Below, in pieces: positions 10,484-31,962 of a stretch of DNA of 64,000 bases (positions within the stretch are counted from its first letter, which is position 1; each line of letters opens with the position of its first letter). Both the position numbers and the translations under genes were made by a program. The DNA lies in contig CBDDKF010000015.1 in assembly GCA_965230015.1 (NCBI GenBank), forward strand, positions 47,393-111,392, in the 5' to 3' direction. The notes beneath the pieces are model-generated. The model was not told the origin of the DNA. It saw nothing but the letters and a program-made list of their open reading frames with translations, and ran no database searches. The DNA comes from Ilumatobacteraceae bacterium. GTDB taxonomy: Bacteria; Actinomycetota; Acidimicrobiia; Acidimicrobiales; Ilumatobacteraceae.

Positions 10484-10492
10484 ACTTGCAAC

Positions 10493-11131: not shown

Positions 11132-11209
11132 CTCGCGCCACAGCGTGCACGGCGCAGCCGTGCTCGCTACTGTCGGCGCAGCGGGCGCTGATCGAGAAGA
11201 GCTGCTGGG

Positions 11210-13831
11210 ATGGCCGAGCGCCAGAATTCGACGAGCCGTGACCGTTCATCGCCGGCCGCTGCGCGGTGGAGCCCCGACCGCTGGGACCATCCGGACGAGC
11301 GCTACTTCCTGATCGACGATGAGGGGTGGGCGATTCCGTTCGAGCACGGCACCGGCCGCGCGCCGACGCTCGCAGCCCGTCGTCGGCTAACCCGCCGGCG
11401 CGTGTCGGTCGCCCGTTGGGCATCGTCGCTCGCCGCCGCGTTGGTGATCGCCATTGCCCCATCATCGGTGGTGTTCGGTGACGACGCAGGGCCCACCGAC
11501 ATCGCCGGCACCCCGCTCGGGGCCCACGCCGAAACCACCGACACGGCACCCGTGCCCGCTCCGCAGTTCGACTCGGCTGGGCGCCAGGTGGTCAGGATCG
11601 CCGTGGTCGCCGATTCGTTCGGCGTCGGCGAGGGCGCCGAACGCTACGTCGGTGACGACGCCCGCCACATCTCCGAGGTTGGACCGGTACCGGCCGCGGT
11701 GGCGGGACTGATGGCGGCCAATCCCGACGTGGTGTTCGAGGTGGTGGTGGTCGGATCGTCGGGCGCGACCACACTCGACGTGTACGCGCCGCAAATGGAC
11801 GGAGACCGGGCGCGCAATCACGCGCAGATCTCGACGTTGCCCACCGACGTCGACATGGTCGTGGTGCAGCTCGGCGGCAACGACGCACAGTTCGGGCCGG
11901 TGGTCGGCGACTTCGCCTTCGACGACTATCCCGATGACGAGGCCGCCGAAGGCGTGCTGCGCGATCACGGGTCGCTCGATGTGACCGAGCCGGTCGGTGC
12001 CCTGGATGCCGCCGAACAGATCCGTGAGGCTGACGCGAGCGGCGACCCACCAACACCGCCCGCCTCGCTTGCCGCGCGGATCGAGATGGTGATCGGCGAC
12101 CTACGCGAGGTGGTCGGCGACGTTCCCATCGTGGTCAACTCGTACCCCCTGGCTGTCGACGACCAGCTCATCGGCGACGACGAGCCGTTCGACGACGGGG
12201 CGATGATGGACCCGCCCGAGCTGCGGCAGATGGAGGTGCTCGGCACGCGGGTCAACGAACAACAACGAGTCGGCGCGCTGCGCGCGGGCGCCACATGGGT
12301 CGACCAATCGACGGTGCTCGAGGGCCACGAGCTGTACTCCGAAGATCCATACGTTCGCGATCTGCTGTTCCCGGCCGACCGCGAGCTCGACCGGCAAGAA
12401 GCGGCGCACCCCAACGCCGACGGCGCGATGGCGCAAGCTGGCCGCCTCGCACCGGTACTTGCCGAGCGCCTCGGCTTGGAACCACCCGGCGACGGGCCGT
12501 ACGACCTCGATGCCTACCCCGTGGAACCGATCGTGCCGCCGACGCCAACCTACGAGGGCTGGCCGTGGAACCGAGAGATGGTGCCGCCCGAGCGCATCGA
12601 ACTGCCCCCGCGCTTCGACGAACAGCCGGCGCCAGAGGTGTCGCCGACCGCGCCCAACGCACCCACGACGCCGGATGCTGCGCCAGCGGCGCCCACGATC
12701 AACGCCGCAACCGACGACCCGCCGAGCCAACCCGACGCGCCATCTGCTCCGCCCCCGCCAACCCCCGACCAGCCACCGCAACTACCGCCGCCTGCGGCAC
12801 CCGCCGACCCACCGCCCGACCCGGCACCCGCCGACCCACCGCCCGACCCGGCAGAGCCAGCTCCCCCGGCGCCACACCCGCCGGAACCAGCCGAGCCGGC
12901 CGCACCGCCGGCTGACGACCCGGCGCCGACGCCGATCGGCTTCGACCCGGGGAGTGGCGCGCCAGCCGACCCGCCACCAGGACCCTCGCCAGTGATGCCC
13001 GCACCCGAAGCGCCAGCGCCGAGCGGTCCCACAGGGCCCGCGGCGATCGACGTCGACGACGACATCCCAGAGCCGCCGACCGACGAACCATCGAACGACG
13101 ACTGGGACGGCCCCGACTCGACCGACGAAACGCCGGCGCCGCCATCGCCATCAACGTCACCACCATCAACGTCACCACCTGCATCCCCGTCAACGACACC
13201 ATTCCCGGCACCGGCGCCGGCGCCGCCGGTGTCCAACGACGTACCCGACGTGGTCAAGCCCGACGACGACGACCGCGACGACGATGACGACCGCGACGAC
13301 GATGACGACCGCGACGACGATGATGATGACGACGATCGCGACGACGAACGCGACGAACACACCAACAACGACACCCAGAGCCCCCCGCCGACGTCGAACC
13401 AGCCACCGACCGTGCACGACGAGCCGCCGCAGGCGCCGTCGCCTCCGACGGTCGACTCGTCGAGCGGATGGTCGGCCAGCGACGATGACGACGGTGGGTA
13501 CGACCCGCCGTCCGTACCCGAACCACCCTCACGACCCGACCCGCCGTCCGCACCGGAGCCGCCCTCACGACCCGAGCCCCCGTCCGCACCGGAGCCACCC
13601 TCACGACCCGAGCCGCCGTCCGCATCCGAACCGCCCTCACCGCCGGCACGACCGGACCCGCCATCGCGACCGGACCCACCGTCACCACCATCACCACCGG
13701 ATCCGCCATCGCCACCGGATCCGCCGGCCGCTCCGGACGACGACTGGACGAGCGAGTGGGACCACGACGGCGACTGGGATCCCAACCCGTCGCCCAGCTC
13801 GAATCCGTTCGACGGATGGTTCGGCGTCTGA
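11210..13831 (+). CDS. Membrane-anchored/secreted SGNH (GDSL-like) hydrolase with a ~450-aa Pro-rich, poly-acidic low-complexity C-terminal region
   Basis: Hydrophobic anchor WASSLAAALVIAIAP. SGNH block I IAVVADSFGVGEG, block III VVVQLGGNDAQF, block V EAAHPNADG. Then PAPxDPPP stretches, DDDRDDDDDRDDDDDRDDDDDDDDRDDERDEH, and PPSxPEPPSRPE repeats. Confidence 0.7.
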   Translation: MAERQNSTSRDRSSPAAARWSPDRWDHPDERYFLIDDEGWAIPFEHGTGRAPTLAARRRLTRRRVSVARWASSLAAALVIAIAPSSVVFGDDAGPTDIAGTPLGAHAETTDTAPVPAPQFDSAGRQVVRIAVVADSFGVGEGAERYVGDDARHISEVGPVPAAVAGLMAANPDVVFEVVVVGSSGATTLDVYAPQMDGDRARNHAQISTLPTDVDMVVVQLGGNDAQFGPVVGDFAFDDYPDDEAAEGVLRDHGSLDVTEPVGALDAAEQIREADASGDPPTPPASLAARIEMVIGDLREVVGDVPIVVNSYPLAVDDQLIGDDEPFDDGAMMDPPELRQMEVLGTRVNEQQRVGALRAGATWVDQSTVLEGHELYSEDPYVRDLLFPADRELDRQEAAHPNADGAMAQAGRLAPVLAERLGLEPPGDGPYDLDAYPVEPIVPPTPTYEGWPWNREMVPPERIELPPRFDEQPAPEVSPTAPNAPTTPDAAPAAPTINAATDDPPSQPDAPSAPPPPTPDQPPQLPPPAAPADPPPDPAPADPPPDPAEPAPPAPHPPEPAEPAAPPADDPAPTPIGFDPGSGAPADPPPGPSPVMPAPEAPAPSGPTGPAAIDVDDDIPEPPTDEPSNDDWDGPDSTDETPAPPSPSTSPPSTSPPASPSTTPFPAPAPAPPVSNDVPDVVKPDDDDRDDDDDRDDDDDRDDDDDDDDRDDERDEHTNNDTQSPPPTSNQPPTVHDEPPQAPSPPTVDSSSGWSASDDDDGGYDPPSVPEPPSRPDPPSAPEPPSRPEPPSAPEPPSRPEPPSASEPPSPPARPDPPSRPDPPSPPSPPDPPSPPDPPAAPDDDWTSEWDHDGDWDPNPSPSSNPFDGWFGV
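13271..13324 (+). repeat. 3 x 18-bp tandem repeat (GACCGCGACGACGATGAC) encoding DRDDDD units
   Basis: Read directly. Two perfect copies plus one with a single change, inside the SGNH hydrolase gene. Confidence 0.85.
13505..13612 (+). repeat. 3 x 36-bp tandem repeat encoding PPS(V/A)PEPPSRP(D/E)
   Basis: In-frame 12-aa units read directly. Degenerate copies continue to about 13740. Confidence 0.85.
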
Positions 13832-14341
13832 TCAGCCGCGCTCGACCACGCCGGCGGCCCCGAGCGGATCGCGAACGAGCGTCATCAGCGACATACCGAG
13901 CCCATACGTGTGCACCCGTGCAGGCACCTCCACTCGGATGAAGCATCCCTCGGGCAGATCGAGTTCACCGTGCCCGGTGATCGAGCCGAGCCTGCCGGCA
14001 GCGACGAGGGTCGTGATCTCGGGGCCTTCAGCATCGAGCAACTCCGCGCGACCTTGGAACTGCACAGCCGAGGGTGGAGCACCAACCGGTACGCGGCGGA
14101 TCGGCACCACTACAGCGGCGTACGGATTCGCCGCCACGTTGCGTGCCTTGCGGCTCGTCCGCAGCGTGCTCACGTAGAGCGCGTCGTCGACGTATTCGTA
14201 CAGCACGCCGGCGACGTGCGGGCGACCGGCATTCGACGTGGTGGCCAGCGTGGCATACGACCGCTTGGCGATGGCCCGCATCACCGCTGCGGCGTCGGGG
14301 CGATGGAGGGTTGCTGACTGGGGAACAGTAGTTGTTGACAT
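13832..14341 (-). CDS. Pyridoxamine 5'-phosphate oxidase-like (FMN/F420-binding split-barrel) family protein
   Basis: YATLATTSNAGRPHVAGVLY…LYVSTLRTSRKARNVAANP is typical of the PNPOx-like fold. Its stop abuts the stop of the convergent SGNH gene (TGA-TCA). Confidence 0.65.
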   Translation of the reverse strand: MSTTTVPQSATLHRPDAAAVMRAIAKRSYATLATTSNAGRPHVAGVLYEYVDDALYVSTLRTSRKARNVAANPYAAVVVPIRRVPVGAPPSAVQFQGRAELLDAEGPEITTLVAAGRLGSITGHGELDLPEGCFIRVEVPARVHTYGLGMSLMTLVRDPLGAAGVVERG

Positions 14342-14422
14342 GATCTCATCGAAACACCGGGTGAAGAGACTTGGAATAGTTCAGAAGCTCAATTCCATAA
14401 TTGATCGTCTACGATTGCTCTC

Positions 14423-15364
14423 ATGGATCCGCTCACCGGTTTGCTCGACAGCCCGCGTGCGCGTGGGGCGTTCGTGATCCGGATGGTGATGGAACCGCCG
14501 TGGGGCGTGCGTGTGCTCGATCGGGCACCGCTCACGATCGCCGCCGTCACCGCTGGCGAGGCATGGGTGTCGCCGAGCGTTGGCGAGCCTCGCCCCCTGC
14601 GCCGGGGCGAGATCGCCGTCTGCCGCGGCCCCGACCCATACGACCTCGCCGATCGGCCCGAGACTGCACCCGAGGTGATCGTCCATCCGGGGCAGCGCTG
14701 CGAGGACCGGTCCGGCCGTTCGCTCGAAGAGCCCTTCATGCGTGGCGTGCGCACCTGGGGCAACTCGCCCGACGGCGAACTCGAGATGATCATCGGGACC
14801 TACGAACACCTCGGCGAGTCGGGACGGCGTCTGCTCGACGCCCTTCCGCCCTTTCTGGTCGTCGATCGCAACGACGTCGGGCCGGCAGCGCTCGACCTGC
14901 TCGCCACCGAACTCACCCGGGATGCTCCCGGACAGACGCTCGTGCTCGACCGGCTCCTCGACCTGGTGACCGTGTCGGTACTCCGCTACTGGTTCGATCG
15001 TCACGGCGACGATGCTCCCGGCTGGTGGCGGGCCGCAACCGATCCGGTGGTGGGACCCGCGCTGCGGCTTCTGCAACACAATCCGGGACACGGTTGGACG
15101 GTGGCCGAGGTGGCGTCGGAGGTGGGTGTCTCCCGTGCATTGCTCGCTCGGCGCTTCAACGAGTTGGTCGGCCAGCCCCCGATGCAGTTTCTCACCGAGT
15201 GGCGGTTGGCCCTGGCGGCCGATCTGCTACTCGAGCCCGACAGCACGGTGCAGGCGGTCGCCGCACAGGTGGGATACGGCAGCGGGTTCGCGCTGAGCAC
15301 TGCGTTCAAGCGAGCGCACGGCCTGACCCCCACCGAGTACCGGGCGCGCACGCTCGCGGCGTGA
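14423..15364 (+). CDS. AraC family transcriptional regulator (cupin-type sensor plus AraC HTH)
   Basis: C-terminal double HTH: WTVAEVASEVGVSRALLARRFNELVGQPPMQFLTEWRLALAADLL and VAAQVGYGSGFALSTAFKRAHGLTPTEYR. Confidence 0.85.
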   Translation: MDPLTGLLDSPRARGAFVIRMVMEPPWGVRVLDRAPLTIAAVTAGEAWVSPSVGEPRPLRRGEIAVCRGPDPYDLADRPETAPEVIVHPGQRCEDRSGRSLEEPFMRGVRTWGNSPDGELEMIIGTYEHLGESGRRLLDALPPFLVVDRNDVGPAALDLLATELTRDAPGQTLVLDRLLDLVTVSVLRYWFDRHGDDAPGWWRAATDPVVGPALRLLQHNPGHGWTVAEVASEVGVSRALLARRFNELVGQPPMQFLTEWRLALAADLLLEPDSTVQAVAAQVGYGSGFALSTAFKRAHGLTPTEYRARTLAA

Positions 15365-15373
15365 GCGCCCCCG

Positions 15374-15751
15374 TCAGTAGTTGAACACCAGCGCGCCGCC
15401 TTGCGTGTACTCGTACACGCTCGGCGCGCCCACCACCTCGACGTTCTTCGTCCAGGTGGCGCCCGTGAGATTGCGCAGCTTGACGCAGACGGGGCAGGCA
15501 AAGAAGCGGCCGCCACGCTCGACGAACTCGGCGTGCAGGTCGGCGATCGCCGGCGCGCCGGGAACACCGATCTGCTCCGCGGCGCCATCGACTGCGATGT
15601 CCACACCGTCCTTGGTGAGCCACAGCACGGCGTCCTTGCCCGCGCGCAACGCTTCGACGCTCATCAGGTAGGCGATGAGCACGCTCTCGGGTTCGTCGGC
15701 ACCGTGGGTCAGTCCGACGAGGACCTTCTGATCGGTTGCGGTGGTCATCAC
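15374..15751 (-). CDS. DsrE/DsrF-like (COG2210-type) sulfur-relay family protein
   Basis: A 125-aa protein: VLVGLTHGADEPESV…LWLTKDGV…FFACPVCVKLR fits the DsrE-fold small-protein pattern. A 4-nt ATGA overlap with the upstream small ORF indicates coupling. Confidence 0.6.
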   Translation of the reverse strand: MMTTATDQKVLVGLTHGADEPESVLIAYLMSVEALRAGKDAVLWLTKDGVDIAVDGAAEQIGVPGAPAIADLHAEFVERGGRFFACPVCVKLRNLTGATWTKNVEVVGAPSVYEYTQGGALVFNY

Positions 15752-16929: not shown

Positions 16930-19900
16930 TCAGAGGGCTACAGGCGAGCGCGCGTCGAGCAAGCCCGAGGCCGTGGCGATCGTGTAGGCGGCAACATCGG
17001 CCGGCCCCAGCCGCTGGCCGTGGTCCCACCAGCGGGCGAAGTCGTCGGGATACTCACGGCGCAGGCGGTCGGCTTGGAGCAGTGCGTACTTGGCGCTGAA
17101 CCCTGCCCGATACCCGGCGGCGTCGCGTGCGCCGAGCACGGTGACCGCCGCATCGGGGCGCTCGGCTCGCTCGAACAGTGCACCAGCGGTGCCCAGACCC
17201 GACAGCGCCCAATGCCACAGACCTCGTTCGGAAGCGAACGCCTCGACCTGGATCATCGCGTCGAGGGCGCGATCGAGCGTGCCGTGGGCGACCATGGCGA
17301 ATGCCCGGATGCTGCGACCGGTCATCGACGAGTTGACCAGGCCGAACCGGTCCGACAGCTCGATGCACGCATCGGCGTCGGCGATGGCACCTTCGCCGTC
17401 GGTCCACATCCGACTCAGCGCCCGTGTACCCAGGGCCAGTGAGCGCGCCGATGCGCCGAGATCGGCCGACAACACGTCGAGCAGATGGGCCACATCGCGG
17501 AGATCGTGATCGTCGGCGAAGTCCATCGTCGAGCGCGTGTGCATCGCCCCGAACTTCGCCTGCACAGCCTCGGGGGCAGGGTTGTCGATGATCCGATCGA
17601 GCCACATGCGCGCGTCGTCGAGGTCGCCGTCGGTGTACCTGCGCCAGGCCACCGCCCACGCCGCCTCGGCAAGTTCGGGCTCGGCCTCGGCAACGGCGTG
17701 CGACAGTCGGTCGCTCAGTGCCCAATCGCCATGGAAGTTGGCCAACACGGCCCAGCCCGCATACGCCCGAGCTTCCTGGTCGCTGGTGTAGCTGGTCGTG
17801 CCAACGTCGAGCAGTTGGTCGTACCACTCGAGCATCTCGAAGCGCATCGCCACGTTGCCGTACAAGCCAGACCTGGAGAGCAACTCGATCACATCGGTGC
17901 GCCGCTCGAGTTGTGCCGCCATGAACACGGCCGCACGCAGATCGTCCCACCGATCGGCGAAGCGCCGCACGCCGTCGTTGTCGGGCGCGCCGATCGTTTC
18001 CCGCCACACGTCGACCAAGGCGACGAGGTGGTCGACGTATCGATGCCGCACTGCGTCGGTCAATCGTTCGCGGGTGAACAACCGGACGCTCTCGAGCAGC
18101 CGATAGCGAGGCCCAAGCTCGGACGGCTCCGGGCCGATCAACAACGATCGCTGCGTGAGCTCGTCGACCATGGCGATGCGTTCGAGCGGCGACGCATCGC
18201 TCATGGCGCCGATGTCGTTCATATCGAACCGGTCGGCGAACACGCTGAGCGCGGTCAGGAACTCGCGCACGGGACGATCGAGGGCGTTCACCGACCAGGC
18301 GATCGTGGTGCGCAGCGTCTGTTGGTGCTCGAGCCCGCCCGGCTCTGCGTCGGTGAGGAACTCGAACCGGTCGGCGAGCAGCGACTCGAGCGTGGGTAGA
18401 TCGATCGACCGGGCGCGGGCAGCTGCCAGGCGCACGGCGAGAGGAAGGTCGTCGAGGCGGGCACAGATACGCGACACGGCCGGATCGGCGGCGTCGATCG
18501 GCTGTCCGTGACGGCGAGCTTCGCTGACGAACAGCTCGATCGCTGCGGCCCGCTCGAGGGGGTGGATTCGTCGCACCACCTCGCCAGCCGAGCCGAGCGG
18601 CGCCCGCGACGTCGCCAGGACGCGCACACGGGGACACTCGGCGAGTATCTGGTCGATGAGTGGGGCCACCCCATCGCGAACGTGTTCGCAGTTGTCCACC
18701 AGGAGCAGCGCATCGCGCTCGCCGAGCGTGCTGACAATCGAGTCGGCGACCGTGGCGGTGGCGTGCTGAAGGCCGCCGATGGCGGTCAGGATCTCCTGCC
18801 CGGCGGCTCCATCGCTGTCGAGCGTGCCGAGTTGGCAGAGCCATGCACCACCCGTGAACCGGTCGGCGAGATCGGCGCCGACGTGCAGCGCCAAGTGCGT
18901 CTTGCCCGCGCCGCCGGGCCCGACGAGCGTGACGATCCGTGCACGTTGCAGTTCGCCGCCCAACTCAGCGCGTTCAACCTCACGGCCGAACGTGTGCGTG
19001 CGCAGCGGTGGAATCGGTCGTCCGCCGACGCGCATCGACCGTGGCGGCGCAGCGGCAACTTCGAGGTCGGGGGCGGTGACACGCCACAGCGTGAGCGGTG
19101 CCACATCGGCGAGCCGGTAGAGACCGAGATCGACGAACTCGACACCATCGCCGACGTCGGAGGCCATCTCGGCCACCACCGGCGAACACAGGATCTGATC
19201 CCCCGAGCCGGCATCCATGATGCGTGTGGTTCGGTCGACCGGCCGGCCGTACCAGCCGCCCTCACGTTGACGTGCTTCACCCGTATCGATGCCGATGCGC
19301 ATCCGCGGTCGTGCCCCAGGCCACTCGGTGGTCTGCAACCGCCGCTGCGCCTCGACCGAGGCTCGCACTGCAGCAGCAACGGAGGTGAAGGCGGCGCACA
19401 CGCCGTGGGCGGGACCCGTGAACGGCACTCCGCCATGCTCGATCATCGCCGACGACACGATCTCGCCGTACTGCTCGTGCAGCGTGAGATCTGCCTGTTG
19501 ATCAGCCCCTTGATCGGGTGCGGCCGACGCGGGGTCCGTCGAGCCCGCCAGATCGGTGACGACGAAGGTGCGCATCGCCGAGCCAGCCTCGGCTCCCGCC
19601 GCCGCTTGATCCCGAATGGCGACCGCGGCCGGGCTCGGGACCACGCCGAGCTGCTCGTCGAGCGTGCGTTCGAGTACCGCGAAGCGACGGGCCACGGCGT
19701 CGGCATCGCCGCGCGCCAACGACTGACGCATCAGCGCGATGTGTGCCGATTCGTCGGTCGGGTCGAGGACGAGCACCGCTTCCCAACGGCCGGCGGCACG
19801 CAGCAACTCGATCTGGCGCAGCAACAGCTCGTTGCGCGCCTCGACCGTCCACTCGTCGTAGGGCAGGTCGGGAAGCAACTCGCCGGCGGCTGCGGCAGCG

Positions 19901-20250
19901 AGTGCGTCGTCGTCGGAGTCGTGGTGCCGCACGGCGATGGCGTCGACCCACACGTCGTGCTCGGGGAGGAGGGCGAGCACGTCGTCGCGCACGACGATGG
20001 CCTCGCGCACACCGAGAGCTTGGCGGGCGTACGTGGCAGCCTTGTTCAGCCGGTTCATAGCGGCGCCGCGTTCGGCGTCGGGCCACAACGCGTCGAGCAC
20101 CTGCTCACGATGTCGTCGCCGCTGAGGACTCAGCGCCAACAACGCCACCAGGTCGGCGCCACTACGACGCTCGAACGACGCGGCGGTCACGTTGAGGCCA
20201 TCGATGTCGACCGAGAAGTCACCGAGCAGGCGAACCCGCACCACACCCAC
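16930..20250 (-). CDS. Large multidomain regulator: SARP/BTAD DNA-binding domain + class III nucleotide cyclase-like domain + NB-ARC/AAA P-loop ATPase + TPR-like C-terminal region
   Basis: N-terminus VRVRLLGDFSVDIDG…RSGADLVALLAL (SARP wHTH) followed by a BTAD-like helical part. FVVTDLAGST…RMRIGIDTGEA is cyclase-like. Walker A is LVGPGGAGKTHLAL. LLLVDNCEHV is NB-ARC-like. GTG starts at 20250/20244/20241; the longer ORF to 21114 is antisense to the neighbouring lipoprotein gene. Confidence 0.75.
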   Translation of the reverse strand: MGVVRVRLLGDFSVDIDGLNVTAASFERRSGADLVALLALSPQRRRHREQVLDALWPDAERGAAMNRLNKAATYARQALGVREAIVVRDDVLALLPEHDVWVDAIAVRHHDSDDDALAAAAAGELLPDLPYDEWTVEARNELLLRQIELLRAAGRWEAVLVLDPTDESAHIALMRQSLARGDADAVARRFAVLERTLDEQLGVVPSPAAVAIRDQAAAGAEAGSAMRTFVVTDLAGSTDPASAAPDQGADQQADLTLHEQYGEIVSSAMIEHGGVPFTGPAHGVCAAFTSVAAAVRASVEAQRRLQTTEWPGARPRMRIGIDTGEARQREGGWYGRPVDRTTRIMDAGSGDQILCSPVVAEMASDVGDGVEFVDLGLYRLADVAPLTLWRVTAPDLEVAAAPPRSMRVGGRPIPPLRTHTFGREVERAELGGELQRARIVTLVGPGGAGKTHLALHVGADLADRFTGGAWLCQLGTLDSDGAAGQEILTAIGGLQHATATVADSIVSTLGERDALLLVDNCEHVRDGVAPLIDQILAECPRVRVLATSRAPLGSAGEVVRRIHPLERAAAIELFVSEARRHGQPIDAADPAVSRICARLDDLPLAVRLAAARARSIDLPTLESLLADRFEFLTDAEPGGLEHQQTLRTTIAWSVNALDRPVREFLTALSVFADRFDMNDIGAMSDASPLERIAMVDELTQRSLLIGPEPSELGPRYRLLESVRLFTRERLTDAVRHRYVDHLVALVDVWRETIGAPDNDGVRRFADRWDDLRAAVFMAAQLERRTDVIELLSRSGLYGNVAMRFEMLEWYDQLLDVGTTSYTSDQEARAYAGWAVLANFHGDWALSDRLSHAVAEAEPELAEAAWAVAWRRYTDGDLDDARMWLDRIIDNPAPEAVQAKFGAMHTRSTMDFADDHDLRDVAHLLDVLSADLGASARSLALGTRALSRMWTDGEGAIADADACIELSDRFGLVNSSMTGRSIRAFAMVAHGTLDRALDAMIQVEAFASERGLWHWALSGLGTAGALFERAERPDAAVTVLGARDAAGYRAGFSAKYALLQADRLRREYPDDFARWWDHGQRLGPADVAAYTIATASGLLDARSPVAL

Positions 20251-20335
20251 GACGCGATGGTACCGAGGCGAACGCGGCCCCGCCCGAACGTCCGGTTGCC
20301 ACAACTCACACCGTCGGCGGTGAAAGACTGGAGGG

Positions 20336-21664
20336 GTGGATGCGCGCCGGAGCGGTCGACGAGGTGCCGGCACCGTCGCGGTGGCGCTGGCGATCGCCGC
20401 ATGCGGATCGAGCGACGACAGCGCCGGCGACACCACCACGGCCGTAACCACCGCGCCGGTCGTCACCACGATTCCGCGTCCGACCGCACCGGCGACGTCG
20501 GCGACACCTGCGACGTCATCACCCGCCGCCACCGGCGAATCGACGCCCACCACAGCCACGCCGACCACCGCACCTCCGACGACGGCAACGCCGACCACCA
20601 CCACCCTGCCGCCGGCACCACCGCCGCCGAACGCCAACTTCGACGCGGTGCAGATCGCCTTCGAGCAGGTGGCCGATGTGAACGCCCCCACCGCTGTGGC
20701 CTGGCGCGACGGCGACCCGTCGATGTACATCACCACCCAAGACGGGTTCATCTCACGCACCACACCCGACGGGTTGGCGCCGGTCGGCGACCTGTCCGGG
20801 GAGACGATCGAGCTGCTCGCTGGCTCCGAACGCGGGCTGCTCGGGCTGGCCTTCGACCCTCGCGACGGGCGGCTGTTCGTGAACCTGACCGACCTCGACA
20901 ACAACACTCGCGTGTGGTCGTACGAGATGGTCGATGGGGCCATTGCCCTCGACACCCGCCGCGAGGTGCTGGCCATCGAGCAGCCCGGTGTGGGACACAA
21001 CGGCGGCGGGTTGCTGTTCGACCCCGACGGCAACTTGTTCATCGGCTCGGGCGACGGCGGCGGCAGCAACGGACGCGACGCCGCCGACACGTCGAAGCTG
21101 CTCGGGGTGATCATGCGGTTGACCCCGAACCTCGACGGCGACGGCTACACCATTCCCGCCGACAACCCGTTCGTGGATGGTGCCGCGGATCGGCCCGAGG
21201 TCTGGGCCCGCGGGTTCCGCAACCCGTGGAGCTTCTCGATCGACTGGCCGACCGGCGACATGTGGGTTGGCGACGTGGGGAACGACGAGCGAGAAGAGGT
21301 GAGCGTGATGCGCGGCGGCGAGCGAGGCCTCAACTTCGGGTGGCCCTGGTTCGAGGGAACGAACACCCGCCGATCGGGCGCACCCGAGGGCGTGATCCCA
21401 CCGGTGTTCGACTACCCGCGCAGCGATGGCGTGGCCGTGATGGGTGGACACGTGTACCGCGGGTCGGCGTTTCCTGAGCTGGAGGGCGCGTATCTGTTCG
21501 CCGATCTCGGCGGGGCGATGTGGGCGATCGGCGCCGAAGGGGTGTCTCGGCTCTCGGTCGATCCGCCGAACGGCATCGTCGGCTGGGGCGAGGACCCCGA
21601 TGGCGAGCTGTACCTGTTGTCGCTGTACGACGGCGTGTTCAAGCTCGTCCCGAACGTCGGCTGA
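20336..21664 (+). CDS. PQQ-dependent sugar (glucose/sorbosone) dehydrogenase family lipoprotein
   Basis: Lipobox LAIAACGSS and a Thr/Pro-rich linker. The beta-propeller signatures are GLLGLAFDP, GHNGGGLLFDPDGNLFIGSGDGG and GFRNPWSFS. RBS GGAGGGG precedes GTG 20336. Confidence 0.8.
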   Translation: MDARRSGRRGAGTVAVALAIAACGSSDDSAGDTTTAVTTAPVVTTIPRPTAPATSATPATSSPAATGESTPTTATPTTAPPTTATPTTTTLPPAPPPPNANFDAVQIAFEQVADVNAPTAVAWRDGDPSMYITTQDGFISRTTPDGLAPVGDLSGETIELLAGSERGLLGLAFDPRDGRLFVNLTDLDNNTRVWSYEMVDGAIALDTRREVLAIEQPGVGHNGGGLLFDPDGNLFIGSGDGGGSNGRDAADTSKLLGVIMRLTPNLDGDGYTIPADNPFVDGAADRPEVWARGFRNPWSFSIDWPTGDMWVGDVGNDEREEVSVMRGGERGLNFGWPWFEGTNTRRSGAPEGVIPPVFDYPRSDGVAVMGGHVYRGSAFPELEGAYLFADLGGAMWAIGAEGVSRLSVDPPNGIVGWGEDPDGELYLLSLYDGVFKLVPNVG

Positions 21665-25250: not shown

Positions 25251-26387
25251 GTGGGAGGCGTGATCCTCGACACGCTCGACATCAACACCGACACGTTCTT
25301 CGCCGGAACCGGCTGGCAGATCAAGCCCGAAGGAGCGTGCAAGGGCGAAGTGTGCGTCCCGCTGCCCGACGGTTTCTCGCTCGAGTACGCCGCGCAGCGA
25401 CTGGGCATGGCCGTGGTGGCCGACGAACCGTCGGGTCGTTGGGCGCTGGGCCCGGAGTCGCTCAATGGTCAAGCCCTCGTCACCGCCGAGGCGCCGGAGC
25501 TGGTACTCGACGACATCGATGGCCACGAGTTCCGCCTGTCGTCGCTGCGTGGCAAGAAGGTGGTGCTCGTCGCGTGGGCGCCGTATTGAGGTTGCCGCTA
25601 TGACCTGCCCGGGTGGCAGGCACTCCACGAAGAGCTGAGCCCGCAGGGCGTCGAGATCGTCACCGTGTCGCTCGAACTGAGCGGTCCAGAGGTGTCACGC
25701 CCGTTCATCGACGCGGCGTCGCCGACGCACCCGTCGTTGCTCGACCCGACACATCAGCTGGGTGCGTTGTTCGGTGTGGTCAACATCCCGAACGTGATCT
25801 GGATCGACGAGCAAGGAACGATCGTGCGGCCCGCCGAGCCCGGGTTCCCTGGCGGCGACCACTACCCCGACTGGCTGCGCAGCTACCTCGATGAACGCGA
25901 CGCAGCGGCGGAATCGAAGGCGAAAGAAATCGAAGCGACCGATCCGGAGCTCGCGGCGAAGATGCGCGGCGGACAGGATCAACAGTCGTACGCCGATGCG
26001 ATCCGCGACTGGGCGACCAACGGTGCCGACAGCCGCTTCGCCTTGTCGCCCGACGAGGTGATCGCGGCGTCGCAACCACGTCCTGCTGCCGTGTCGGAAG
26101 CCGCCGCGCACTTCGAGCTCGCCAACGACCTGTGGCGCAGCGACCAACGAGACGCGGCGATCCCCCACTTCAACGCCGCGCATCGGCTGCAACCCGACAA
26201 CTGGACCTACAAGCGCCAAGCGTGGTCGCTCGTCGGCAACGAACGCGCCGGCGGCGGCGAACTCGGTCGGTTCAACCAGGGTCCGCTCCCCGGCGAAGAG
26301 GACGACTGGCCGTTCGAGGGCAACTTCGCCGACGAAGCCGGCAGCACCCCGGCTGGCGACTACTACCCCAAGACCCTCGACGTCTGA
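25251..26387 (+). CDS. Thioredoxin-fold (TlpA/ResA/redoxin-like) protein with an in-frame TGA at 25587-25589 at the redox-active position (candidate selenoprotein, motif W-A-P-Y-U-G-C)
   Basis: ORFs 25251-25589 and 25665-26387 are in the same frame. Read through, the sequence is LRGKKVVLVAWAPY-TGA-GCRYDLPGWQALHEELSPQGVEIVTVSLE…NIPNVIWIDEQGTIV, a continuous redoxin fold with the TGA where the first CxxC-type Cys is expected. Confidence 0.75.
25604..25620 (+). other. Candidate bacterial SECIS hairpin CCUGCC-CGGGU-GGCAGG, 14 nt downstream of the in-frame UGA
   Basis: 6-bp GC stem and 5-nt loop with G at loop positions 2-4, read directly. Confidence 0.5.
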
Positions 26388-26394
26388 TCGCCCG

Positions 26395-27270
26395 TCACGG
26401 GCGCGACGGGAAGATCCCCACCGCGCAGATCGTGTAGGTCAACCCGTTCGGCGCAGCCGCGCGCAGGTCCGGTACGGCAAACACCGTCATTGCATCACCG
26501 CCGTAGAGCGTTCCGAGCAGCGCGTACAGCGCCTGGTAGCTGTTGATCGGGAGCAGCTGTCCGTTCGCCAGGACTTGTCCGTGCGAGGTCGTTCCCGCGG
26601 TCAGGATGATCTCTCCGAGCGTGCATTCGCCGCCAGAACCAGCGGCGGCCACCTCGGTATTCGTCCCGAACACGTCGGCGCCTGGACCCGGAGGTCCTGG
26701 GGGGCCAGCGGGGCCGGGGACACCAGCGGTCGCCGACAACTCGCTGAGCGACGATCCCGAGTAGAAGCCGACCACGTCGGCCAACACGTTGACGGTGCCG
26801 TTCTGGTTGAACAGGGTGATCTGGCCGTCGGTCGACAACTTGACATCGACCTTGTTCGGCGTGGGCGATTGGCCCGGCAACCAGTTCAGGCTCGACACGG
26901 TGGGCACCTCGGTCACGTCCGACGGGTAGATGCGTAGGTTCGACTGCGCGGTCGGATCGGTGATGGTCACGTTCATCGCGACGGCGATGGCCGACGACGG
27001 GATCGAACAGTTGCCGACATCGCCGGTCACCTGCTGCACGTGGACGTTCGACTCGCCCGCGGCCAACGGTGTCTTCTTGTCGCCGTCGGGCTCGGCACCC
27101 GGCCGGAAGTCGAACAGGCGGCACGGCTCGATCGGGAACAGGGTGGCATCCTCGTCGCCGGGAGCGGCCCCCGCCGACCACGGCTCGACGACGAGCAGCG
27201 CGCACACCAGCGCCAACACTCCGGTACTCGCCATCCAGGCGATGCTCGGGATACGGGAAAGACGGTCCAT
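26395..27270 (-). CDS. Secreted protein: conserved N-terminal domain (paralogous to the two genes at 28.9-31.8 kb) + short collagen-like GPx run + C-terminal phage tail-collar-like domain
   Basis: Signal/anchor IAWMASTGVLALVCALLVV. The N-domain runs …AVAMNVTITDPTAQSNLRIYPSD…PNKVDVKLSTDGQITLFNQNGTVNVLADVVGFYS. Then GVPGPAGPPGPPGPG, and a tail-collar-like C-terminus GEIILTAG…LANGQLLPINSYQALYALLGTLYGGD…FAVPDLR. Start at ATG 27270. Confidence 0.7.
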   Translation of the reverse strand: MDRLSRIPSIAWMASTGVLALVCALLVVEPWSAGAAPGDEDATLFPIEPCRLFDFRPGAEPDGDKKTPLAAGESNVHVQQVTGDVGNCSIPSSAIAVAMNVTITDPTAQSNLRIYPSDVTEVPTVSSLNWLPGQSPTPNKVDVKLSTDGQITLFNQNGTVNVLADVVGFYSGSSLSELSATAGVPGPAGPPGPPGPGADVFGTNTEVAAAGSGGECTLGEIILTAGTTSHGQVLANGQLLPINSYQALYALLGTLYGGDAMTVFAVPDLRAAAPNGLTYTICAVGIFPSRP

Positions 27271-27390
27271 GGTCGACTCCTCCAGTACGGACAGCCGGAC
27301 CCCACGCCGGCTGTCGTCGAGCGACAGCCTGTCACGCCACACACCACCCCCGAACCAGCTCCGGTCCTGATCCACCCGCTCGCCGAAAAA

Positions 27391-27433
27391 CCGGGGATTT
27401 CATGCGCCTGGCGCATGATGTCGCGAACAGAAC
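27391..27433 (+). repeat. 43-nt repeat element, copy a (CCGGGGATT-palindrome-CGCGAACAGAAC)
   Basis: CCGGGGATTTCATGCGCCTGGCGCATGATGTCGCGAACAGAAC. The internal perfect palindrome TCATGCGCC-T-GGCGCATGA is at 27400-27418. The element ends 41 nt upstream of ATG 27474. Confidence 0.8.
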
Positions 27434-27473
27434 GGGGGGTTGTCCGGTGACCGTGCGGTGCCGATACAGATGT

Positions 27474-28472
27474 ATGGGAGATCGCACAAGCGGGCGAGTC
27501 GGCGCGGTGCTGGTTGCTGCCGCGGCGCTGATGATCTCGGTTGTCGCAGTCGCCGCACCGACACGTGTTGACGGTCCAGCGAGCGTGACCGAACGAGCGG
27601 TGCGCCTCGGCGTGCAGGGTGGACCGACGATCGCTGGTTGTCCAGTGTTCCCGTCGGACAACGCCTGGAACACACCGATCGACGGCGCTCCGCTCCATCC
27701 GCGCAGCGACTCGATGATCGCCACGATCCACGACAACGGTGGCGACTTCCTGCATCCTGACTTCGGCGAGAACCCCAACTACGGGATTCCGTTCGTGGTG
27801 GTCCCCGAGTCGCAGACACCGGTGCCGATCACCTACGACGCCTACGGCAGCGAGAGCGATCCGGGCCCCTTTCCCATCCCGCTCGACGCGCCCATCGAAG
27901 GAGAGCCGGGCGCAACGAGCGGGGATCGGCACGTCATCGCCGTGCAACGCGGCACATGCGAACTGTTCGAGCTGTACGTCGCTCGACCCTCGAGCACTGG
28001 ATGGACCGCCGCGTCTGGCGCACGGTTCAACCTCCGGTCCAACGATCTCCGCCCACTCGGTTGGACCAGTGCTGACGCTGCGGGCCTCCCGATCTTCCCC
28101 GGACTGGTCCGCTACGAGGAGGTCGCCGCGGGCGAGATCCGCCATGCGATCCGCGTGACCTTCAGTCGCACCCAACGCGGCTACATCCTCCCGGCGACGC
28201 ACTTCGCGTCGAACGACACCAACCCCGATCTGCCACCGATGGGGCTGCGCCTACGGCTCAAGTCGAGCTACGACATAGACCAGCTCACCGGCCAGGCACG
28301 GGTGATCGCCACGGCAATGCAGCGCTACGGGTTGATCGTGGCCGACAACGGATCGAACTGGTACTTCCAAGGAGCCCCGAGCCCCGGTTGGGACGACGAC
28401 GACCTCAACCAGCTGAAGAGCGTGCCCGGCACCGCGTTCGAGGTGGTCGATACCGGGCCAGTGCGTCGCTAA
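27474..28472 (+). CDS. Secreted hypothetical protein (332 aa)
   Basis: Signal-like N-terminus RVGAVLVAAAALMISVVAVAAP. The rest is coding-like with no motif I can name. ATG 27474 is chosen within the longer ORF 27069-28472. Confidence 0.55.
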   Translation: MGDRTSGRVGAVLVAAAALMISVVAVAAPTRVDGPASVTERAVRLGVQGGPTIAGCPVFPSDNAWNTPIDGAPLHPRSDSMIATIHDNGGDFLHPDFGENPNYGIPFVVVPESQTPVPITYDAYGSESDPGPFPIPLDAPIEGEPGATSGDRHVIAVQRGTCELFELYVARPSSTGWTAASGARFNLRSNDLRPLGWTSADAAGLPIFPGLVRYEEVAAGEIRHAIRVTFSRTQRGYILPATHFASNDTNPDLPPMGLRLRLKSSYDIDQLTGQARVIATAMQRYGLIVADNGSNWYFQGAPSPGWDDDDLNQLKSVPGTAFEVVDTGPVRR

Positions 28473-28918
28473 CCGTGCCCCTCAGCTGGTCGGCGCGGCG
28501 GGAACAGTCGCACCACGAGGTACACCACCACGAACGGCAACCCGAAGCGAAAGGCCGTGACGAGCAAGGTCAGCGCGAAGTCCTGACCTGAGCCGATCAC
28601 GTCGGCAACTTCGACCTCACGACCGTCGGTGAATACGCACGCCGCAGGTTGACCACCGGTGGTGAAGCTGCCGTCGCCCTGCTGAATTGAGGCCACGTCG
28701 CCCTCCCGTCCGCACAACGGTTCGTAGACCACCCTGTTCACGACCCACGTCGCGCCGAGCACGATCGGCACGTACGCGATCACGAAGAAGCCGAGAATCC
28801 AGATCGCACGTCGAGCACTCGGATGGGCGCCACCGCCTCCCGAGCCGCTTGCTGCAGCGACTCCCTCGGCCTCGGCCCGCTCGTCGGCGTCGAGGCCCTC
28901 GTACGGATCGTTGCTCAC
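28469..28918 (-). CDS. Small membrane protein (149 aa, two predicted TM helices), translationally coupled to the upstream fibre-protein gene
   Basis: GTG 28918 overlaps the upstream TGA (GTGA). Hydrophobic segments are IWILGFFVIAYVPIVLGATWVV and FALTLLVTAFRFGLPFVVVYLVV. Confidence 0.55.
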   Translation of the reverse strand: MSNDPYEGLDADERAEAEGVAAASGSGGGGAHPSARRAIWILGFFVIAYVPIVLGATWVVNRVVYEPLCGREGDVASIQQGDGSFTTGGQPAACVFTDGREVEVADVIGSGQDFALTLLVTAFRFGLPFVVVYLVVRLFPPRRPAEGHG

Positions 28919-30417
28919 AGCGGACCCCCAGGGCCTTCGCCACAGACCCGAGCCACGTTGGCCACCGAGCACGTGACACCGTCGCCACCGGCGATCGACT
29001 CGTTCCCACCGTTGGCCTCGTTCAACAACCCGCCAGCGACCGCCGAGTTCTGAGCCGAGGCCGTGTTGTTCGAACCACCGACTACCGACGACGCGGTCCC
29101 GGTGGCCTGATTGGCATTGCCACCAGACACCGACGCGCTCTCGCCCGAGGCCACGCTGAAGTTGCCGCCAGACACCGACGCGTAGTCCCCGGCTGCCGTG
29201 TTGTGATCGCCGCCCACTACCGATGACTGTTGGCCACTGGCGATGTTGCTATTGCCACCAGACACCGATGCACCGCGCCCGGTAGCGGCGTTTCCGATCC
29301 CACCTGACACGGTTGCATGTTCAGCCGACGCGGCGTTGAAGGAGCCGCCAACCACGGCAGCTCCGGACTGCGATGCTTCGTTGTTGACGCCCCCGAACAC
29401 CGCGGCAAACAGACCAGACGCGGCATTGTTGCGACCACCAGCGATCGACGAGAGCGCATCGCCTGCGGTGTTGCCAAACCCACCGGCAACGGTCGCACCA
29501 TCTCCGGACGCCGCATTCGCCACCCCACCAACGACACTCGCATACGGCCCGCTGACCGTGTTCCCTGAGCCGCCGAGCAGACCCGAGAAGCTGGTCCAGT
29601 CGTGGTCGAAGCCGACCACGAGGTTGTGGCTGCCACTGCGCGTTTCAGGTGTGCCCGGGTCCTCGTTGTAGCCAATCATTAGATTTCCGACGCCATTGCA
29701 CGCCTCGAAGCCGATTGCGTTGCACTCGGTGTTGTTGCTGCCGTCGACGACCTGCACATTGACACCGCTGAAGCGGACCGTGCGGTGGCCCTCGACATCG
29801 AGCACGGTGACGTCGGCGAGCTTCGCTTCGAGCGCCGCGATCCTCGAGTCTTGTTCGGCGAGTCGGGTGTGGAGTTCGCTGAGGCTGGCCGTGGAGTAGT
29901 AGCCGACCACATCACCCACCACCGACACCTGACCGTTCTGGTTGAACAACTTGATCGCCCCCGACGGCGACAACGACACATCCACCTTGTTCGGAAACGG
30001 CGCCTGACCCGCCGAGAAGTTCAAGTTGGAGATCAACGGCACCTCGGTCAGATCCGCCGGAAACAACCGCAGATTCGACTGCGCCGTCGGACCCACCGCA
30101 GTGACATTCATCGCCACCCCCACCGCATCGCCCGGGATCGCCAACTCCCCCACACACTCACCAACACCACCGGTGATCTGCTGCACAAACACCTCACCAG
30201 CACCCAACGGCTCAGACCGCGGACCCACCTGATTCGGCGCCGGCCGATAATCGAACGCTCGACACCCCGCCGTCGGCACAAACGTCGCATCCGAATCACC
30301 CGGCGCGGCATCCACCCGCCACGCCGCCAACAACGCAACGAGTGCGGCGATCCCAGAAGCCACGACGAGCCCGATCAACAGCCGTCGAACGCCGACGGTC
30401 GAGACCGCCGCGCCCAT
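28915..30417 (-). CDS. Secreted/anchored fibre-like protein B: N-terminal conserved domain + coiled-coil neck + 15-residue SVSGGxxNxAxGxxS beta-roll repeats (YadA-head/tail-fibre-like)
   Basis: ATG 30417 shares one base with the stop of the upstream paralog. Anchor LLIGLVVASGIAALVALLAA. Neck LSELHTRLAEQDSRIAALEAKLADV. There are more than 12 repeats such as ASVSGGNSNIASGQQ / SSVVGGDHNTAAGDY / ASVSGGNANQATGTA. The Cys-containing C-terminus is GGDGVTCS…ARVCGEGPGGPL. Confidence 0.7.
   Translation of the reverse strand: MGAAVSTVGVRRLLIGLVVASGIAALVALLAAWRVDAAPGDSDATFVPTAGCRAFDYRPAPNQVGPRSEPLGAGEVFVQQITGGVGECVGELAIPGDAVGVAMNVTAVGPTAQSNLRLFPADLTEVPLISNLNFSAGQAPFPNKVDVSLSPSGAIKLFNQNGQVSVVGDVVGYYSTASLSELHTRLAEQDSRIAALEAKLADVTVLDVEGHRTVRFSGVNVQVVDGSNNTECNAIGFEACNGVGNLMIGYNEDPGTPETRSGSHNLVVGFDHDWTSFSGLLGGSGNTVSGPYASVVGGVANAASGDGATVAGGFGNTAGDALSSIAGGRNNAASGLFAAVFGGVNNEASQSGAAVVGGSFNAASAEHATVSGGIGNAATGRGASVSGGNSNIASGQQSSVVGGDHNTAAGDYASVSGGNFSVASGESASVSGGNANQATGTASSVVGGSNNTASAQNSAVAGGLLNEANGGNESIAGGDGVTCSVANVARVCGEGPGGPL
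29864..30332. repeat. 469-bp direct repeat, copy 1 (1 mismatch versus 31276-31744)
   Basis: Constant offset of 1412 bp, shown by identical ORF-track entries (29912-30157 = 31324-31569; 30026-30232 = 31438-31644). The single mismatch is at 30307/31719. Covers the N-terminal domain coding region of fibre gene B. Confidence 0.9.
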
Positions 30418-31826
30418 CACAACGGCCCTCCGAGCCCGTCGCCGCACACGCGGGCACCCAGGGCGAAGCTGCACGTGACGCCGTCGCCACCGGCGACCGA
30501 GTCGTTCTCGCCGGTTGCCTGGTTCATGAATCCACCGGACACCGAGGTGCGCTCACCGCCGGCTGTGTTGTTGGCACCACCGGAGACCGACGATGCGGTG
30601 TTGACCGCGTCGTTGTTCGATCCACCCGACACCGACGCTCCGGTGCTCGTCGCCTCGTTGTTCAGGCCGCCGGACACCGAGGAATGCACACCTGACGCGG
30701 CGTTGCCATTCCCTCCCGACACCGAAGCGCCGTTGCTCCCAGCGGTGTTGTCACGTCCGCCGCTCACCGACGACCAAAAGGCGTTCGCCTCGTTGTCGCG
30801 ACCTCCCGAGATCGACGACGCCTGCGACGTGGCGGTGTTCCCGTAACCGCCGAGGACACTCGCGTAGCTCCCCTCGGTTGCGTTGACCGCGCCACCCGTC
30901 ACGACCGTTGCGGTGCCGCCGGCGGTGTTGCTGTTACCGCCGAGCACGTTCGAATACGGGCCCTCGATCGTGTTGAACGATCCGGCGACGATCCCGCCGT
31001 AGCTGACCCAGCTGTTATGAGTCCCGACCACGAGGTTGTGACTACCGCTTCGCACAGCGGGCAGGTTCGCGTCTTCGTTGTAGCCGATGATCAGGTTGCC
31101 AACACTTGTGCAGCTCTCCGGGAAGGTTCCGCCACACGGCGTGGATCCCCTTCCATCGACGACTTGCACGTTTACTCCCGAGAACCGGAGCGTGTCGATG
31201 CCGTCGACCTCGAGTCGGCTGACACCTTCGAGCCGGCCGAGCAAGGTGTCGAGCTCGGCCTCCACAGCGTTGAGCCGGGTGTGGAGTTCGCTGAGGCTGG
31301 CCGTGGAGTAGTAGCCGACCACATCACCCACCACCGACACCTGACCGTTCTGGTTGAACAACTTGATCGCCCCCGACGGCGACAACGACACATCCACCTT
31401 GTTCGGAAACGGCGCCTGACCCGCCGAGAAGTTCAAGTTGGAGATCAACGGCACCTCGGTCAGATCCGCCGGAAACAACCGCAGATTCGACTGCGCCGTC
31501 GGACCCACCGCAGTGACATTCATCGCCACCCCCACCGCATCGCCCGGGATCGCCAACTCCCCCACACACTCACCAACACCACCGGTGATCTGCTGCACAA
31601 ACACCTCACCAGCACCCAACGGCTCAGACCGCGGACCCACCTGATTCGGCGCCGGCCGATAATCGAACGCTCGACACCCCGCCGTCGGCACAAACGTCGC
31701 ATCCGAATCACCCGGCGCCGCATCCACCCGCCACGCCGCCAACACGACCGCCGCAACAACGGCCCCGATCATCGCTGCGGTGACCAACCAGACCACCGAC
31801 CGCACTCGAACTACTGCTGCGGACAT
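30417..31826 (-). CDS. Secreted/anchored fibre-like protein A (paralog of 28915-30417)
   Basis: ATG 31826 is preceded by GGAGGGA. Anchor VVWLVTAAMIGAVVAAVVLAA. The N-domain is identical to paralog B. Neck LSELHTRLNAVEAELDTLLGRLEG. Repeats include SSISGGRDNEANAFW / SSVSGGRDNTAGSNG / ASVSGGNGNAASGVH. The C-terminus is GGDGVTCSFALGARVCGDGLGGPL. Confidence 0.7.
   Translation of the reverse strand: MSAAVVRVRSVVWLVTAAMIGAVVAAVVLAAWRVDAAPGDSDATFVPTAGCRAFDYRPAPNQVGPRSEPLGAGEVFVQQITGGVGECVGELAIPGDAVGVAMNVTAVGPTAQSNLRLFPADLTEVPLISNLNFSAGQAPFPNKVDVSLSPSGAIKLFNQNGQVSVVGDVVGYYSTASLSELHTRLNAVEAELDTLLGRLEGVSRLEVDGIDTLRFSGVNVQVVDGRGSTPCGGTFPESCTSVGNLIIGYNEDANLPAVRSGSHNLVVGTHNSWVSYGGIVAGSFNTIEGPYSNVLGGNSNTAGGTATVVTGGAVNATEGSYASVLGGYGNTATSQASSISGGRDNEANAFWSSVSGGRDNTAGSNGASVSGGNGNAASGVHSSVSGGLNNEATSTGASVSGGSNNDAVNTASSVSGGANNTAGGERTSVSGGFMNQATGENDSVAGGDGVTCSFALGARVCGDGLGGPL
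31276..31744. repeat. 469-bp direct repeat, copy 2
   Basis: See copy 1. Covers the N-terminal domain coding region of fibre gene A. Confidence 0.9.
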
Positions 31827-31887
31827 CCCCGCTCCCTCCACGTCACGGCGCCGCCGATCGGCGCCGGTGCCAGGGAAACGGAGCGAC

Positions 31888-31905
31888 TGCTCAGACGCCT
31901 GAGCA
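31888..31905. promoter_or_regulatory. Palindrome TGCTCAG-acgc-CTGAGCA between fibre operon (-) and LuxR/LAL gene (+)
   Basis: 7-bp inverted repeat with 4-bp spacer, read directly in the 136-bp divergent gap. Confidence 0.35.
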
Positions 31906-31962
31906 ACCGTTACTCAATGTGTGAAATCCACCCGTCGGCAGGTCCCGTAGCATCGACGAGCG

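Follow-up and report, generated by a model that had tools for sequence, protein, structure and literature searches.

Our analysis indicates that positions 25260–26387 of the window (the whole 64-kb stretch of DNA that was analysed) form one gene encoding a cytoplasmic three-domain selenoprotein of the WAxxUGC type, that is, a UGC-containing ResA/TlpA/Prx-like protein. We assign this reading a probability of roughly 0.93. It is based on a reading frame and a fold that continue across an in-frame TGA, a cysteine at the corresponding column of homologs, the conservation of the stop codon and its switch to TAG, the constraint on a downstream hairpin, the adjacency of orthologs to sel genes, and the NCBIfam model NF041054. 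An initial annotation had called the gene a probable selenoprotein, a proposal that the Cys homologs, the stop-codon counts, the hairpin and NF041054 now support.

Translation of the window showed a single frame on the plus strand, running from a GTG at 25260 to a terminal TGA at 26385–26387, with the TGA at 25587–25589 as its sole interruption. The complete selenoprotein gene would thus comprise 375 codons including that for Sec, plus the terminal TGA. The two open reading frames listed originally share this frame, with the TGA at 25587–25589 in frame between both, and the peptide read across it is ...GKKVVLVAWAPY*GCRYDLPGWQALHEEL..., so that the read-through product quoted at the outset is borne out. 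With the valine at 25260 numbered V1, the UGA would be read as selenocysteine 110 (U110), the first position of a U-G-C redox motif. The surrounding sequence W-A-P-Y-TGA-G-C (25575–25595) conforms to the motif W-A-x-x-U-G-C with a recoded stop at U, a motif present in 81/81 orthologs. In a window of 67.6% G+C, GC3 is of coding type on both sides of the TGA (0.78 and 0.82), and both halves of the gene are intact, with no further stops or frameshifts. The frame given by the initial annotation stands, but its start most likely does not. That start, the GTG at 25251 on the plus strand, lies upstream of 25260 and would add 3 residues; the GTG at 25260 is most likely the true start, because N-terminal database fragments are 109 aa long and begin with V/M-I-L-D, and because of the N-termini of homologs.

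When the read-through protein was used as a query, 3264 matches were obtained, and the best 120 were nearly all of about 240–270 aa, covering the C-terminal two-thirds only. The part preceding the stop retrieved 3818 clusters. Nearly every one of the top 120 was exactly 109 aa long, with V/M-I-L-D at its start and, as its last residue, the Tyr that precedes the stop. Such 109-aa and ~240-aa fragments of the gene number in the thousands in public protein databases, as foreseen by the earlier remark that gene callers would split it. No record matches the window protein exactly; the nearest database fragments are 91–93% identical to it, and the closest relatives, 74–93% identical, have their architecture in common with the window gene. 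Full-length homologs (P0002, P0011 and P0051; 57–61% identical) align on both sides of the TGA, read WAPY-C-GC-R and have a Cys exactly at the TGA column.

We then considered the genomic orthologs. A scan with one genome per species yielded more than 573 encoding loci, of which the best 80 were analysed; the 81-sequence sets referred to below are stop-codon forms. Among these best 80 orthologs, the Sec column is occupied by TGA in 77/80 and by TAG in 3/80, and a sense codon was seen in 0/80. A stop at this same column in 80/80 species-representative orthologs is far more than chance would give. In principle, the TGA could stem from faulty sequencing or assembly, or from a nonsense change that recently hit TGC or TGT and left a pseudogene or artefact, as it is one base away from these codons and Cys-form homologs exist. 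This explanation is extremely improbable, however, given that the stop recurs in all 80 independent species-level assemblies and that thousands of independently assembled fragments break here, namely the 3818 N-terminal clusters and the 3264 full-length-query matches. Separately, when metagenome DNA was scanned with a pattern for the Cys form (TGGGCNCCNTAYTGYGGNTGY), 98 matches were obtained, and all 80 loci examined were chance occurrences outside the family.

The three TAG loci (L026, L027 and L029) belong to Geodermatophilus sp. CPCC 205761 and two Blastococcus, and carry the same hairpin after the TAG. According to a passage in PMC5330540, citing Mukai et al. 2016, Geodermatophilaceae have a tRNA-Sec with a CUA anticodon and TAG at Sec sites, and the TAG-Sec genes include 'AhpC' of Blastococcus saxobsidens DD2. 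Orthologs of the window gene in these UAG-Sec Geodermatophilaceae thus use TAG, whereas the window gene has the canonical UGA. This pattern bears on the idea that the UGA is decoded other than as Sec, either by reassignment to Trp or Gly or by near-cognate read-through inserting Trp or Cys, which the hairpin could in principle stimulate. The switch to TAG occurs precisely in the tRNA-Sec(CUA) lineage, and non-Sec decoding can hardly account for a stop identity that tracks the anticodon of tRNA-Sec. Moreover, the gene is linked to selABCD in four genomes, and the residue that replaces the stop in homologs is a Cys at the redox site. UGA is also the commonest terminator in the window, ending about 30 of the 51 coding-like segments. 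As these include the genes for the RuBisCO large subunit and NiFe hydrogenase, whose Pfam profiles were matched to their ends, the code is not reassigned. Altogether, we regard non-Sec decoding of this UGA as highly improbable. A second read-through candidate in the window, at 56112–56897, was rejected since it consists of a RuBisCO small subunit followed by HypA, and the other contiguous same-frame ORF pairs are ordinary neighbouring genes rather than cases of read-through.

Within the 64-kb window, selA, selB, selD and tRNA-Sec were not found, and no tRNA of any kind was detected there. The only AIRS-family ORF of the window (38547–39803, minus strand) was tried as SelD and rejected, as it corresponds to HypE (TIGR02124, 422 bits). 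In four loci (L048, L056, L062 and L071), the ortholog directly adjoins tRNA-Sec(UCA), SelD, SelB and SelA. The scores beside the ortholog were 321 and 330 bits for SelD (TIGR00476), 381 for SelA (TIGR00474) and 256 for SelB (TIGR00475). Two loci, L056 and L071, were tested with the NCBIfam models for SelA, SelB and SelD, and each model scored above its cutoff in one or both of them, in agreement with Pfam; the SelB ORF of L071 is shorter and scored under the TIGR00475 cutoff. Such linkage was seen in only 4/80 loci, and in most loci the sel genes simply lie elsewhere in the genome. We infer the Sec competence of the window's organism from its relatives; Sec use in Acidimicrobiia was recently noted for Actinomarina (2026 preprint).

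The lack of sel genes and tRNA-Sec within the window would also fit a selenoprotein gene undergoing decay or silencing in a host whose Sec machinery has been lost, in which case only the 109-aa fragment, or nothing functional, would be made. This scenario is very unlikely in view of the intact, coding-type halves of the gene, a hairpin that is perfect and equal to the family consensus, the 74–93% identical relatives with the same architecture, and the usual location of sel genes away from this locus. A functional selenoprotein gene remains our preferred reading, and the hairpin provides further evidence for it.

The putative bacterial SECIS core lies at 25604–25620 (plus strand) and is 17 nt long (CCTGCC-CGGGT-GGCAGG), with a 6-bp stem (CCUGCC/GGCAGG) and a 5-nt loop, CGGGU. 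It begins 14 nt past the stop, its loop begins 20 nt past the stop, and it is embedded in the codons for D-L-P-G-W-Q-A. The coordinates, stem, loop and spacing given initially for this element were confirmed. The same annotation had placed G at the first two loop positions; this holds for position 2 (G occupies positions 2–4) but not for position 1, which is C. According to the published bSECIS consensus, the loop is of 3–9 nt, the stem of 4–16 bp and the MFE <= -7.5 kcal/mol (PMC13188914, Fig. 2A), with G in the first two loop positions, usually then G/U, and a spacing of 16–37 nt (PMC13188914). When these constraints were checked, the window hairpin fell within all of them (5-nt loop, 6 bp, loop G2 followed by G, 20-nt spacing, -11.1 kcal/mol). 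Like the prototypes E. coli fdhF and fdnG, it lies inside the ORF, directly 3' of the UGA, and carries a small apical loop with G followed by G or U. It differs from the bSECIS model in being very short (17 nt), nearly invariant in the family and with a stem largely dictated by the peptide. An Rfam scan of the window matched no family; Rfam covers bacterial SECIS elements poorly (2026 Actinomarina preprint). The fold energy of the 71-nt context was no better than that of shuffles (z=+1.16), and the significance of the hairpin therefore comes from comparative data and not from thermodynamics.

The stem is perfect in 80/81 stop-codon forms, variation being confined to the two outer pairs, and the window hairpin is itself perfect and identical to the family consensus. 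CG-to-UA double changes were observed in L080 (CUUGCC/GGCAAG) and in three loci with GAU...ACN. In a covariation test on 43 distinct sequences, with 500 shuffles and slid controls, 99.6% of cells paired and 2/6 pairs had changed on both sides. The covariation score was reached by 0/500 shuffles and slid controls paired only 21–76%; this signal stems from few events, and neither the Fisher nor the shuffle statistics correct for shared ancestry, so that the p-values serve only as a guide. RNAalifold recovered the same helix unprompted, and no conserved lower stem was detected. Codon choice within the hairpin is restricted as well. The codon entropy of Leu+6 is 0.17 bits, compared to 1.29–1.99 at 16 other conserved Leu columns, and that of Gln+10 is 0.10 bits, compared to 0.62–0.94 at 5 others. 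Pro+7 is encoded only by CCC or CCA, and among 22 Gly columns the entropy is lowest at Gly+8. The loop always reads [C/A]-G-[G/U]-[G/U]-U; when its first base is A, this base pairs with the last U to give a 7-bp stem and a triloop.

As a control, we retrieved the DNA of 8 Cys-form loci through exact-protein look-ups, two of them close and six divergent. These Cys-form genes keep 4–6 of the 6 stem pairs (6, 4, 5, 6, 5, 5, 5 and 5), since the peptide D-L-P-x-W-Q, when encoded by GC-preferred codons, comes close to spelling out the stem. The argument that the stem alone proves a SECIS was therefore rejected, as Cys homologs already possess most of that stem. The two forms nevertheless differ. A perfect stem is found in 80/81 stop-codon forms versus 2/8 Cys forms (p=3e-7, relatedness ignored), and the loop rule is kept in 81/81 versus 4/8. 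Uncompensated synonymous changes occur in 0/81 stop-codon forms and 3/8 Cys forms, and the Pro codon CCG in 0/81 and 4/8, respectively. Residue +8 is Gly or Val in stop-codon forms, while it is G, S, E, V, A or I in Cys forms. The SECIS may have been exapted from a pre-existing hairpin.

On the upstream side, TAT precedes the UGA in 70 of the 77 UGA forms that have Tyr at this position, compared to a TAT usage of about 16% elsewhere in these genes. We note this marked bias towards U directly 5' of the UGA, together with the clean UGA/UAG switch across lineages, as observations in their own right.

At the protein level, three regions were distinguished, all encoded on the plus strand. The N-terminal domain of about 70 aa (25260–25481) has no match in Pfam and no known fold. 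It is followed by a ResA/TlpA-like thioredoxin-fold domain with the Sec codon inside (25482–25826), assigned from Pfam, PDB sequence matches and Foldseek, and by a C-terminal helical, TPR-like domain with a tail (25857–26384), assigned from a weak TPR_2 match (E=6.6e-4, under the Pfam cutoff) and from AF2 helices at residues 206–328. Pfam matches extend across the stop, at residues 78–192 of the 378-aa read-through product, to AhpC/TSA (PF00578; E=1.1e-15, 58.2 bits versus a gathering threshold of 26) and Redoxin (E=3.3e-10). PDB sequence matches (3kcm, ResA and TlpA; E from 5e-13 to 3e-10) are limited to residues ~72–200. In the C-terminal domain, the motif NWTYKRQAWS is invariant among orthologs.

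Structural modelling with AF2 used the natural Cys form P0002, which is 61% identical to the window protein. The model (pLDDT 88.2, pTM 0.84) shows the thioredoxin fold flanked by an alpha/beta domain on the N-terminal side and a helical domain on the C-terminal side. In a Foldseek search with this model, only the central third matched ResA (2h1b/1st9; E=7e-11, TMt 0.75–0.78), and P0002 superposed on ResA with an rmsd of 1.8 A over 116 columns. Modelled alone, the N-terminal domain had a pLDDT of 76.8, and a Foldseek search of the PDB with it gave no significant match (best E=1.3). The N-terminus folds as a soluble domain in the AF2 models. By inspection, no signal peptide or anchor is visible in the window protein, the N-terminus VILDTLDINTDTFFAGTGW being without a hydrophobic segment.

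The redox-capable positions C27, C32, U110 and C112 are all invariant in 81/81 orthologs. Cys27 and Cys32 (codons at 25338–25355, plus strand) form a CX4C pair in the N-terminal domain, which sits on a beta-hairpin in AF2 models and is conserved in the wider Cys family. Cys112 (25593–25595, plus strand) is the predicted resolving partner in U-G-C and aligns with the second Cys of ResA. In the PDB sequence alignments, the U is matched to the first Cys of CEPC in ResA, and one residue is deleted ahead of the second. The initial placement of the UGA at the first active-site Cys of a TlpA/ResA/redoxin fold accordingly agrees with both the Cys-bearing homologs and the ResA alignment; the UGA does occupy the first redox position, but the spacing is not that of CxxC, since the gap in the ResA alignment leaves a U-x-C motif. 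Both W-A-x-x-C-x-C and the CX4C pair are retained in the wider family of Cys-containing proteins, of which some distant members have signal peptides. A search for a conserved gene neighbourhood found none that would suggest a partner; even the most frequent set of neighbours, made up of generic acyl-CoA and SDR enzymes, was present in at most 10/81 loci.

Comparison with curated families showed that the protein belongs to the NCBIfam equivalog NF041054 (query with C in place of U; 445.8 bits versus a cutoff of 300, E=1.2e-133). Residues 5–374 matched profile positions 2–351 of 354, corresponding to the full-length 'long' architecture. This family (WAxxUGC_long, 'ResA-like WAxxUGC motif-containing protein') has the same motif and three-domain length, and we saw no difference of substance. 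In the literature, the 2008 GOS selenoproteome described a 'Prx-like (UGC-containing)' family with pfam00578 and UGC, comprising 46 Sec sequences and 855 Cys homologs and more abundant in non-marine samples (PMC2398784), and a 2026 review also has 'Prx-like (UGC-containing)' (PMC13188914). This published family, a predicted selenoprotein with many Cys homologs, has PF00578 and the UGC motif in common with the window gene; the hairpin and the two outer domains, N-terminal with CX4C and C-terminal helical, go unmentioned in the papers on it. Judged by motif, domain and NCBIfam name rather than by direct alignment, the window gene is a member of this Prx-like (UGC-containing) family. The string 'WAxxUGC' was absent from the papers in our literature search, and no experimental Sec insertion or enzymatic activity for the family was found in the literature searched.

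The protein is distinct from its better-known relatives. With ResA, TlpA, StoA and DsbE it has in common the thioredoxin fold, including the ResA-type insertion (cd02966), and an active site at the same helix N-terminus. In contrast to these extracytoplasmic CxxC proteins, its motif is UxC, one residue shorter, it has no visible signal peptide or anchor, and it carries the additional N-terminal CX4C and C-terminal helical domains. Scores with the NCBIfam models for ResA (62 versus a cutoff of 170), StoA (42 versus 210) and TlpA (38 versus 230) were far under the cutoffs. By inspection, the peroxiredoxin motif PxxxT/SxxC is absent, the sequence being A-W-A-P-Y-U-G-C with Ala three residues before U; the selenoprotein Prx as listed in PMC13188914 uses TxxU.

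From these data, we propose that a ribosome reaching the UGA at 25587–25589 would encounter the 17-nt hairpin 14 nt downstream acting as a bacterial SECIS. The hairpin would recruit SelB-GTP with Sec-tRNA(Sec), and Sec would be inserted in place of termination by release factor 2. For this organism, both the insertion of Sec and the binding of SelB to the hairpin are predictions. Sec110 would then serve as the nucleophile, in the place of the N-terminal Cys of a thioredoxin-fold active site, and by analogy with thioredoxin-fold enzymology it most likely cycles with Cys112 via a selenenylsulfide, which would confer a thiol-disulfide oxidoreductase or peroxidase-like activity. The Sec110-Cys112 pair could possibly be recycled through C27/C32. 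More tentatively, and in our view rather unlikely in its entirety, the protein might go beyond a selenium variant of ResA and work as a self-contained cytoplasmic redox relay in which the N-terminal CX4C recycles U110-C112 and the TPR-like domain picks the client, its synthesis depending on a minimal exapted SECIS aided by a hitherto undescribed context requirement for uridine at -1.

The discovery value of this finding is small. The gene is not a discovery but a clear ortholog within a selenoprotein family that has already been curated and published, with its UGC motif and selenoprotein status on record. The remaining interest lies in the function of the protein and its N-terminal domain, the minimal peptide-embedded SECIS, the U 5' of the UGA and the UGA/UAG switch. 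In practical terms, standard gene callers yield a 109-aa and a ~240-aa hypothetical protein at this locus, and recognising the family mends the gene model. Membership in the family also marks the organism, an Acidimicrobiia/Ilumatobacteraceae-like actinobacterium, as Sec-decoding. The WAxxUGC family is widespread in soil and freshwater Actinomycetota, almost always in the Sec form, and is a reasonable experimental target; cultured isolates of Geodermatophilus and Blastococcus carry the family gene with TAG.

The Tyr codon directly 5' of the Sec codon (window 25584-25586) was compared at the same column in L001-L080, the best 80 of more than 573 loci that encode the gene, taken with one genome per species. 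Among the 77 UGA forms with a Tyr there, 70 use TAT, whereas TAC predominates at the remaining conserved Tyr columns in these genes (51/79, 73/80, 74/78, and 76/78), and the share of TAT elsewhere in them is about 16%. Because the -1 codon is rich in TAT while the other Tyr columns are mostly TAC, this sequence comparison suggests that U is selected for immediately before the UGA (position -1). We know of no described equivalent of such a preference. RNAalifold also drew a second tiny helix (GC.CC/GG..GC) at window 25578-25595, which would place UAUUGA into a 7-nt loop. The Ala, Pro, Gly, and Cys codons dictate its pairs through their first two positions; therefore, conservation of this helix is uninformative on structure.

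At the Sec column of the Geodermatophilus and Blastococcus orthologs, TAG replaces TGA (10334-10336 in both L026 and L027, 10259-10261 in L029). All three TAG forms have TAC as the -1 codon, and the same hairpin as in the UGA forms lies 3' of the TAG. Recoding of UAG as Sec has been published for Geodermatophilaceae (PMC5330540), and the TAG in these orthologs is consistent with it. Across up to 21 kb of sequence per locus, no tRNA-Sec(CUA) was found in these three cases.

In four genomes, a complete sel cluster (selA, selB, selD, and tRNA-Sec) directly adjoins the ortholog (L048, 731-6299; L056, 10001-15571; L062, about 10001-15706; L071, 5482-11137). An ORF for an AurF-like di-iron oxygenase lies just past this region in L056 and L071.

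Four stop-codon-form orthologs (L019, L034, L039, and L074), 59-67% identical, come from MAGs with the labels Deltaproteobacteria, Myxococcota, Tepidiformaceae, and Dehalococcoidia. Horizontal transfer or mis-binned actinobacterial contigs could account for them. In the wider family, sampled as the divergent Cys-form relatives P0241-P0386, the W-A-x-x-C-x-C motif and the N-terminal CX4C pair are retained; in P0253 (WASWSEC) and P0338 (WAGWCES), one active-site Cys has been lost. Three of these relatives (P0259, P0281, and P0299) carry N-terminal signal peptides.

Elsewhere in the window, two predicted secreted proteins (26395-27375 and 28915-30474, both on the minus strand) are alike over an N-terminal region of about 200 aa, with the common pattern AAPGD..ATF.P...CR.FD.RP...NVT...PTAQSNLR..P.D...LFNQNG.V....DVVG.Y. 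Their C-termini are unlike, with a phage-tail Collar domain in one and a glycine-rich beta-roll-like repeat region in the other. Four large coding-like ORFs, of 1404 aa (16930-21144, minus), 467 aa (27069-28472, plus), 498 aa (30417-31913, minus), and 467 aa (45240-46643, minus), had no Pfam match at E<=1e-5.

A hydrogen/CO2 chemolithoautotrophy island extends over 38547-56897. Its minus strand encodes HypE (38547-39803), HypF (41097-43742), a hydrogenase maturation protease (46701-47210), and the NiFe hydrogenase large subunit (47257-48894), and its plus strand FBPase (52516-53694), the RuBisCO large and small subunits (54541-56510), and HypA (56511-56897); two LysR regulators also lie within it. 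Unrelated to the selenoprotein finding, this island is notable for an Acidimicrobiia-like genome.
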